IMG/VR virus record: IMGVR_UViG_637000265_000004
Source of the DNA: a virus
Lineage: Duplodnaviria; Heunggongvirae; Uroviricota; Caudoviricetes
Reading direction: 5' to 3' (one strand)
DNA length: 32,882 nucleotides
Shown: positions 14,043-14,198 of the stretch, in pieces
How positions within the stretch are numbered: position 1 is the stretch's first letter
Layout of the letters: every line of letters starts with the position of its first letter
Position numbers and translations under genes: made by a program
Notes under the pieces: model-generated
Database searches by the model: none
What the model saw: the letters and a program-made list of their open reading frames with translations, nothing else
Told to the model about the DNA's origin: nothing

Positions 14043-14198
14043 ATGTCTCAACAACCACAACAACCACAACAAGAAATCAGCATCATTAACCTCGACCAGC
14101 TTGTGTCCATGACCTCAGTTGAAATTGCTGAGCTGACAGGCAACGAGCACCGAAATGTCCTTCGTGATATTCGTAAGATGCTCGAAGAACTTAACGCG
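14043..14198 (+). pseudogene. Rha-family-like phage regulatory protein, 5' fragment truncated by IS1
   Basis: SVEIAELTGNEHRNVLRDIRKM resembles the Phage_pRha signature; ORF runs into the IS1 end at 14199. Confidence 0.5.

Follow-up and report, generated by a model that had tools for sequence, protein, structure and literature searches.

The 32,882-nt stretch of viral DNA considered here, called the window below, is the IMG/VR record IMGVR_UViG_637000265_000004, and at positions 14043-14198 it holds the first 52 codons of a gene of the Rha family. Upstream of this stub, on the same strand, stand two exact T7 promoters, and directly after it stands the insertion sequence IS1. The first-pass annotation of this DNA had taken the stub for the first gene downstream of the promoters, truncated by IS1 and possibly dependent on T7 RNA polymerase for its expression. 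Comparison with intact relatives bears out this arrangement and places the stub in what is probably a decayed satellite-like element of T7-like phages. The features that carry the argument in the window are the following.

13061-13300, + strand: 120-bp tandem duplication, 99% identical, with one T7 promoter per unit (repeat search)
13136-13158, + strand: exact T7 class III consensus promoter TAATACGACTCACTATAGGGAGA, copy 1 (consensus scan)
13256-13278, + strand: exact T7 class III consensus promoter TAATACGACTCACTATAGGGAGA, copy 2 (consensus scan)
13943-14025, + strand: conserved structured leader of three helices and 23 base pairs, with outer stem GTTTGCATCCTG / CAGGGTGCAAAC (covariation)
14029-14034, + strand: Shine-Dalgarno sequence AAGGAA, 8 nt before the ATG (read from the sequence)
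14043-14198, + strand: first 52 codons of a Rha-family (Rha plus Ant-like) gene (Pfam profile match and orthologue alignment)
14199-14966, no strand assigned: complete IS1 of 768 bp with ends GGTAATGCTGCC...GGAGTCATTACC (sequence; open reading frames 14254-14529 and 14448-14951, the insA/insB frames)

The Rha-family gene and its truncation

The open reading frame (ORF) at 14043..14225 (+) opens with MSQQPQQPQQEISIINLDQLVSMTSVEIAELTGNEHRNVLRDIRKMLEELNA, and its element-derived part is 14043-14198. This part matches the Pfam profile Phage_pRha (PF09669) with E=5.2e-9 and 37.0 bits, above the gathering cut-off of 29.9, over profile positions 1-29 of 91 only. An intact orthologue of 248 amino acids (aa) in E. 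coli ECMA0423 (L015:11452-12198) shows 86% identity to these 52 codons over its residues 5-46. The orthologue spans positions 1-90 of the 91 in Phage_pRha (1.5e-18, 67.5 bits), matches phrog_10324, 'anti-repressor Ant', over its full length (2.6e-62) and matches Pfam ANT weakly (E=0.03). With its reading frame cut at codon 52, the window copy is left without the C-terminal Ant/KilAC-type domain. No conserved ORF lies between the T7 promoters and 14043, so the stub is the first gene downstream of them, as had been proposed. Its Shine-Dalgarno sequence has a counterpart in the relatives, which carry AAGGAG at the equivalent position.

The truncation is precise. Similarity to the E. coli ECMA0423 orthologue breaks off at 14198 and the complete IS1 begins at 14199; an IS1 transposase is annotated on plasmids that match this region. 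There is no target duplication at this IS1, and its right end abuts a 5'-truncated IS600, two facts that together point to loss of the remaining element through an IS-mediated deletion. Nowhere else in the 32.9-kb window were the genes found that come after the Rha-like gene in intact relatives. To judge from the sequence, the gene is dead in the window: IS1 cut it after codon 52, and the downstream part of the element, including its right attachment site (attR), is lost.

T7 promoters and host promoters in the window

The T7 class III consensus is a 23-bp sequence, TAATACGACTCACTATAGGGAGA, that runs from −17 to +6. It occurs exactly twice in the window, both times on the + strand, and 100 shuffles yielded 0 matches at <=3 mismatches. 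With their flanks, the two copies share 26-27 identical nt with the T7 class III promoters phi13, phi6.5, phi10 and phiOR. The nearer one begins 787 nt before the ATG, and the pair lies ~790-910 nt upstream of the gene. The 120-bp unit that holds each promoter varies in number among near-identical IMG/VR contigs, with one copy in L024, two in the window and three each in L025 and L028; these contigs have the same IS1-truncated layout at 98-100% identity to the window. L028 also has an extra insertion of ~1.25 kb near the equivalent of window position 13680.

A consensus scan found no + strand sigma70-like site in 13520-14043, the last ~520 nt before the ATG, in keeping with the earlier remark that none is evident immediately upstream. 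The only + strand promoter-like match upstream is a weak one (9/12) at 13492-13519, which lies inside AT-rich repeats and is not conserved in the relative L001. No intrinsic terminator was found in 12900-14300. The same depletion of host promoters holds for the relatives, where sigma70-like sites in the leader and the 250 nt upstream of the first gene average 0.04 per locus (55 distinct loci), compared with 0.21 in shuffles.

A family of small integrated elements

The relatives define a family. About 70 related loci were gathered from E. coli, Klebsiella, Citrobacter, Pectobacterium, Proteus and gut metagenomes. DNA related to window 13040-14198 is present, always on the chromosome, in 218 of 5426 complete E. 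coli genomes (about 4%). A search with the integrase gave 20 loci in Klebsiella, Pectobacterium, Citrobacter, Enterobacter, Buttiauxella, Morganella, Proteus, Serratia, Rouxiella and others, the orthologues being 65-87% identical and standing beside tRNA-Gly in 20 species, and a search with the leader pattern gave 53 metagenome contigs. Attachment-site (att) repeats of 17-31 bp, derived from the tRNA-Gly 3' end, surround 11 complete elements (L001, L002 and 9 of the 20 integrase loci). Where both ends are present, an intact element measures 4.2-7.6 kb. A 7.8-kb record with a matching promoter, PQ520054, was considered as a satellite and proved to be a mislabelled T7-like phage fragment.

The elements have one gene order in common. 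The integrase is followed in larger copies by the gene RAZR/PD-T7-4, then by 0.7-1.5 kb of non-coding DNA, the leader and a first gene of 160-250 aa of Rha, KilA-N or Ant type. After the first gene, larger copies encode a ~70-aa protein, a DUF6971 protein (137-181 aa) and a capsid-like protein of 326-402 aa. The intact homologues, whose examination the first-pass annotation had recommended, always have a gene in this position after the same leader, mostly of one of the three types. The first-gene proteins (L015, L045, L077 and others) are mosaics in which Rha, KilA-N or unknown N-terminal modules are joined to the same Ant-like C-terminal half, and the gene families are exchanged just after a common MSQQ start. 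The MSQQ shared among families suggests recombination at the start codon and leader. PADLOC and NCBIfam returned nothing for the Rha-like, ~70-aa, DUF6971 and capsid-like proteins.

Small elements without the capsid-like gene carry instead a pair of genes for a 157-175 aa protein that starts with MFGLFKKK and a 91-105 aa protein that is hydrophobic or membrane-like by eye. The first alone is present at L001:10564-11037, the second alone at L002:10654-10971 and both at L009:10090-10911. The 157-aa protein of L001, the only member scanned, has no family match. This pair may be an alternative interference or defence cassette.

In having an integrase, att sites and a small size, together with an incomplete set of virion and lysis genes that includes one capsid-fold gene, the relatives have the makeup of phage satellites.

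Phage promoters throughout the family

In nearly every locus the DNA that separates the integrase (or RAZR) from the first gene contains one to four 23-mers of the type recognized by single-subunit phage RNA polymerases. Their orientation is uniform: at <=2 mismatches the core TCACTATAGGGAGA occurs 90 times on the gene strand and 0 times on the opposite strand (55 distinct loci). The 74 minus-strand matches that appear at 3 mismatches are artefacts, the core CTATAG being nearly palindromic. In most elements the promoters form two clusters, ~650-1100 nt (distal) and ~150-560 nt (proximal) upstream of the leader hairpin.

The specificity of these promoters varies with the host. E. coli and Shigella-type copies have T7-type promoters, and in the element of K. 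pneumoniae ATCC 13883 (L003) one exact T7 promoter is combined with one exact and two near matches to the K11 type. In Citrobacter, Enterobacter and Buttiauxella copies the CCCTCACTATAGG type is paired with the CTATCACTATAGGGAGA type, and Proteus and Kluyvera copies have AATTAACCCACACTATAGGGAGA. Among phages, the K11-type sequence matched 173 records, 161 of them Klebsiella phages, with ~10 sites per genome, and the T7-type sequence matches mainly phages of Escherichia, Yersinia and Salmonella. The CTATCACTATAGGGAGA (CTATC) type is found in ~40-kb T7-like phages of Escherichia, Cronobacter, Enterobacter and Shigella, at 3-4 sites per record. At the level of sequence, then, promoter specificity agrees with that of the T7-like phages known from the host genus.

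The promoters appear to open a complete transcription unit. A scan of L003 from 6700 to 13400 found 2 sigma70-like sites on both strands against 6.4 +/- 2.7 expected, and the single + strand site is the glyU promoter, which does not belong to the element. The stop of the last L003 gene is followed, after 13 nt, by a strong hairpin of terminator type, CCCCGGAG...CTCTGGGG with a T run. The operon thus has the look of a transcription unit bounded by the phage promoters at its start and by the terminator at its end. The suggestion that expression of the Rha-like gene depended on T7 RNA polymerase gains support from the 90 to 0 co-orientation of the promoters, their host-matched specificity and the depletion of sigma70-like sites.

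The structured leader

Between the promoters and the gene, just 5' of the Shine-Dalgarno sequence, lies a leader of ~115 nt that is kept across genera even when the gene family behind it differs. Its pairing holds in 94.3% of cells across 16 distinct sequences (the window and 15 other loci) from several genera, and 8 pairs are altered on both sides. None of 500 column shuffles reaches the observed values, and slid controls are 38-52% paired. These counts refer to a manually derived register, which replaced that of RNAalifold as the better supported by pair counts. Folding of the window leader RNA gives z = -2.6. The leader has no Rfam match; a lenient threshold gave only a chance microRNA match at E=0.2. 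The sequence ATTCTGTTT within it was considered as a class II T7 pause site (ATCTGTT) and rejected, being inexact and not conserved in L006 or L011. The leader could be an RNA element of a long phage-polymerase transcript, either a processing site or a stabilising hairpin like the T7 intergenic ones.

Origin-like and junction-like repeats

The non-coding stretch from the integrase to the Rha stub, 13049-14042, is ~1 kb long and contains, downstream of the promoters, three further features.

13461-13650, no strand assigned: AT-rich region with (A/T)ACTTAAAG-type repeats and an AT-rich palindrome at its end (G+C content, motif counts and k-mers)
13651-13900, no strand assigned: arrays of CTCTAGGGTCTC / CTATAGGTCT / CTATGGCCC repeats, with inverted copies at 13846-13882 (repeat search)
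13885-13890, + strand: CAGTAG scar (comparison with L001 and L002)

A T7 origin of replication consists of a T7 promoter followed by AT-rich DNA with primase recognition sites, and the first of these regions resembles one in composition. It has 24.7% G+C, starts 183 nt past the second promoter and contains TTAAAG 8 times against 0.49 expected. The windows of the T7 genome that share most 6-8-mers with it (z about 5-7) are 251-450, the left end with phiOL; 5801-6100, with phi1.1A/phi1.1B and the AT-rich primary origin; and 18451, with phi6.5. The second region, read on the opposite strand, has its top k-mer matches at T7 101-400 and 39551-39850 (z about 7), two repeat-rich segments that flank the terminal repeat and make up the concatemer junction. 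T7 primase-type GGGTC/TGGTC motifs number 10 on the + strand of 13049-14042 against 1.3 expected and sit within the repeats. As the k-mer and motif counts come from repeats, the copies are not independent.

No alignable homology to T7 extends beyond the promoters. A DNA search of 50,697 phage records with 13040-14198 matched the promoter itself and nothing more (Salmonella phage Vi06), so this segment is not a piece of a known phage.

At the CAGTAG scar, L001 and L002 have an extra 113-130 nt flanked by CAGTAG, with a third, promoter-proximal site resembling a phage promoter. This segment is absent from the window, in which only the distal promoter pair is present.

By eye, additional conserved non-coding blocks can be made out across genera downstream of the distal promoters, at window 13316-13485, L003 about 9470-9640, L010 about 9440-9600 and L020 about 9030-9190; examples are AACGTAnnTATC...CCTTTCAGGGGCGGGA...ACAGAC and ACAGGGGC(GG)AAACTNAAAG. 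The AT-rich palindrome GGTGATGATATTTATAATAATCAATCACC, likewise seen by eye, lies at window 13628-13656. In L002 (E. coli EC17CM13), positions 8771-8935, right after the integrase stop, hold a tandem array of ~13 GGCGATG(A/G)CCATA units, after which come CCTATGTGGTC repeats. The unit is present 3 times in L001 and 0 times in the window, and all copies contain TGGTC or GACCA motifs.

RAZR and the capsid-like protein in the relatives

Two proteins of the larger relatives bear on the function of the element. RAZR/PD-T7-4 is a Zn-finger/DUF4145 protein of 210-219 aa with a full-length PADLOC match (E=8e-99). Its gene, at L003:8624-9253 and also in L009-L012, lies between the integrase and the phage promoters and is absent from the window copy. 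Its place upstream of the phage promoters would leave it outside their reach. For integrase or RAZR no sigma70-like promoter was found inside L003, and the strong glyU tRNA promoter stands just upstream. A selection against T7 yielded PD-T7-4, which was described as 'often overlapping an integrase gene' (PMC9519451), a remark with which its place next to the integrase in the larger elements agrees. It was later renamed RAZR and identified as an abortive-infection RNase that the T7 and T3 portal proteins activate (PMC13017515). Neither paper, when searched by term, refers to the phage promoters, to the operon behind them or to the island as one unit.

Between elements, the 326-402 aa proteins share 32-46% identity and are homologous. 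In a collection of 5.8 billion proteins their family comprises 56 clusters, nearly all labelled 'hypothetical' and all from Enterobacterales or metagenomes. The predicted structure has an HK97-type fold (predicted local distance difference test score, pLDDT, 63; TM-scores 0.3-0.4). A usable model required 26 more diverse sequences, the shallow alignment having given pLDDT 34. A tblastn search of the 50,697 phage records gave no match. The UniRef label 'DUF4043' on one member is a hint only.

Genomic setting of the window copy

The remaining features of the window show how this copy came to rest and decay.

11255-11329, + strand: tRNA-Gly(UCC), the last of the prophage tRNA cluster, on the left attachment site (attL) side (ARAGORN)
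11444-13048, + strand: tyrosine integrase of 534 aa (Pfam Phage_integrase, 4.4e-18)
14967-15872, + strand: 5'-truncated IS600-type element of the IS3 family, with the end of orfA and orfB (sequence, ORFs and plasmid matches)

The first 11 kb of the window are a Rac/lambdoid-type prophage with replication and Q regions; its last part is the tRNA cluster Met-Arg-Thr-Gly(UCC) at 11019-11329. Over the 60 nt after tRNA-Gly(UCC) the DNA hardly differs from the left end of the L002 element. Only GGTTCGATTCCC and GCCCGCTCCA are shared between the 3' end of this tRNA and the usual site of the relatives, the chromosomal glyU tRNA-Gly(CCC), and the tRNA-Gly(UCC) is for this reason taken as a secondary integration site within the prophage. 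The window retains attL and the integrase and has no attR. On its sequence, the best reading of 11330-14198 is the left third of a decayed copy of the satellite-like element. The surrounding region (14199-15872, and elsewhere 8558-9255 and 23498-24195) is rich in insertion sequences, with copies of IS1, IS600 and, by plasmid matches, the IS66 family.

A model for induction by T7-like phages

The intact relatives and the window copy present a model in which the element is a satellite-like passenger of T7-like (Studiervirinae) phages and the Rha stub is what is left of the first gene of its only operon. The probability of this reading is put at roughly 0.6. To the architecture, promoter orientation and specificity, lack of host promoters, leader and truncation established by comparison of sequences, it adds an induction by infection, an origin or packaging role for the repeats, a mobilisation and a role for the Rha-like protein, all of which we infer.

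The operon has no sigma70-type promoter and has one or two clusters of phage-polymerase promoters, all pointing into it, and for these reasons the element would stay silent until a phage makes its own RNA polymerase. That polymerase would then transcribe ~0.8 kb of non-coding DNA, the leader and the gene for the DNA-binding protein of Rha, KilA-N or Ant type, and would continue through the genes for the ~70-aa protein, the DUF6971 protein and the HK97-fold capsid-like protein to the terminator. Since promoters and repeats together look like a T7-type origin and packaging region, driving the Rha-like gene is probably not the promoters' only job. By their resemblance to T7, the tandem promoters with AT-rich TTAAAG repeats would mimic T7 origins, and the GGTCTC-type repeats would mimic the flanks of the T7 concatemer junction. 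Through this region the replisome and terminase of the helper would amplify and package the element. The Rha-like protein may be a regulator or a DNA-handling factor that infection induces, with a part in excision, in packaging specificity or in interference. The earlier description of the gene as cargo switched on by phage infection stands in part: its placement behind phage promoters fits such a switch, and its position as first gene of the core operon does not fit the term cargo.

A wider proposal can be built on this model. The loci would represent an undescribed Enterobacterales family of 4-7.6 kb satellites of virulent T7-like phages, in which promoter arrays sense the helper, origin-like and junction-like repeats borrow its replisome and terminase, an HK97-fold protein supplies a shell of their own and some members carry RAZR; the window would be an IS-decayed, Shigella-type copy in a prophage tRNA-Gly. 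We put this forward tentatively, at a little under even odds.

Several observations weigh against the satellite model. Its induction, excision, replication and transduction are predictions from sequence. Neither portal, terminase, tail and lysis genes nor a replication initiator or recognisable excisionase was found in the intact elements L003 and L015 with Pfam, PHROGs and NCBIfam. The 4.2-kb elements L001 and L002 have no capsid-like gene, and where the gene is present the HK97-fold assignment comes from a medium-confidence model with low TM-scores; the protein matched neither Pfam (26 members), nor sequence profiles of the PDB, nor T7 gp10 (hhalign). The likeness to an origin and packaging site comes from k-mer and motif statistics of repeats without extended phage homology. 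No packaged, circular or concatemeric forms were found: the metagenome contigs of 6.2-6.7 kb stop at the att sites and have no terminal overlaps, and the IMG/VR viral-contig names look like prophage calls from isolate genomes and not like virome assemblies. In the window copy itself the promoters are distant from the gene and the proximal cluster is missing, and the sigma70 scan is a simple consensus test, which weak or activator-dependent host promoters may escape.

Alternative explanations

The alternative that survives best, unlikely as we judge it to be, is an infection-triggered defence cassette, in which T7 RNA polymerase would be the trigger only, the products would abort or poison the infection, and the element would be neither replicated nor packaged. 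The integrase would then reflect ordinary island mobility, and the capsid-like protein might spoil T7 head assembly. Many copies do carry RAZR/PD-T7-4, a proven anti-T7 abortive-infection gene; satellites typically also defend, however, so that the defence and satellite readings overlap. The 4.2-kb copies, with KilA-N and small proteins (one of them hydrophobic by eye) and no capsid-like gene, suit a cassette, whereas the full-length, conserved HK97-fold protein of the larger copies, preceded as in capsid modules by a DUF6971 protein with a charged helical tail, is left unexplained by it. A cassette would need neither packaged or circular forms nor terminase or replication genes, none of which was found, yet it offers no account of the conserved non-coding architecture of 0.7-1 kb with its origin-like and junction-like repeats, or of how widely so small an element with an integrase is distributed among genera at the same tRNA.

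It is improbable that the T7 promoters act in cis only, as origin, packaging signal or polymerase decoy, with the Rha-like gene served by read-through or by a weak or activator-dependent host promoter that was missed. The ~790-910 nt between promoters and gene, with origin-like sequence next in line, would suit such a role, but most relatives have a second cluster ~150-560 nt upstream of the leader. A consensus test as simple as the one used could miss a promoter, but the depletion of sigma70-like sites is family-wide and no terminator stands before the gene. The leader, moreover, lies directly before the Shine-Dalgarno sequence, as expected of a long processed transcript. Contamination by a cloning vector or a random, functionless scrap of T7 can be dismissed, common as exact T7 promoters are in laboratory vectors, given the non-vector flanks, the presence in 218 of 5426 E. 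coli genomes, the other genera with other promoter types and the lack of T7 homology past the promoter.

If the satellite model is true, the element senses its helper by copied promoters, from which a phage could hardly escape without changing its polymerase-promoter pair, and stacking promoters of different specificities would widen the trigger. RAZR/PD-T7-4 would find its genomic context in a T7-responsive mobile element whose cargo it is, and the laboratory T7 expression and T7 transducing-plasmid systems would have a natural counterpart. T7 is the textbook virulent phage, hence the interest of a natural satellite. A compact protein with a predicted capsid fold and a conserved RNA leader are also brought to notice, and the window copy, remnant though it is, makes a good pointer to the family.

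Comparison with known systems

No description of a T7-promoter-bearing island or of a natural T7 satellite was found in full-text searches, which leave most subscription journals uncovered; only PD-T7-4/RAZR surfaced. [quoted passage not shown]

The cf-PICIs are several-fold larger, have a full head module (portal, protease/scaffold, adaptors and small terminase) as well as regulators, and exploit temperate phages. The element described here, in contrast, is ~6 kb long and has one capsid-fold gene and a DUF6971 gene, no portal or terminase, and the promoters of virulent T7-like phages. The gene set of PICIs and cf-PICIs (repressor/AlpA, primase-replicase, small terminase, capsid-morphogenesis genes and head module) is absent from L003 and L015 by Pfam, PHROGs and NCBIfam, and the element is therefore not classed as a PICI. 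What the cf-PICIs offer for comparison is a satellite that encodes its own capsid (for example EcCI2, PDB 9gyi; bioRxiv 10.1101/2022.09.08.507074).

PICMIs are likewise very small integrative satellites with a reduced gene content and a virulent helper, the helper of the element here being presumed. They are reported to belong to Vibrionaceae, to have no capsid-remodelling genes and to be packaged as a concatemer (PMC10803314), which an element of 4-7 kb in a 40-kb T7 head would also need. They have no sequence relationship to the element family. To our knowledge, the helpers of PICMIs are not T7-like and no phage-RNA-polymerase promoters have been reported for them.

In transcriptional control the element comes closer to P4 and the SaPIs, whose genes stand under promoters that respond to the transcription machinery of the helper. 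The late promoters of P4 are transactivated by P2 Ogr, and operon I of SaPIs by the late activator of the helper, in both cases by host RNA polymerase with a helper activator. Unlike cf-PICIs, PICMIs, P4 and SaPIs, the element has complete promoters for the single-subunit RNA polymerase of its helper, often of several specificities side by side.

A parallel to the proposed cycle comes from the laboratory. Chung and Hinkle in 1990 reportedly found that plasmids with a T7 origin and a concatemer junction were replicated by T7 and packaged by it as concatemers into transducing particles. Those plasmids were engineered and held real T7 DNA, whereas the natural element has no T7 homology beyond its promoters; the logic proposed for window 13061-13900, with its promoters, AT-rich DNA and junction-type repeats, would be the same.

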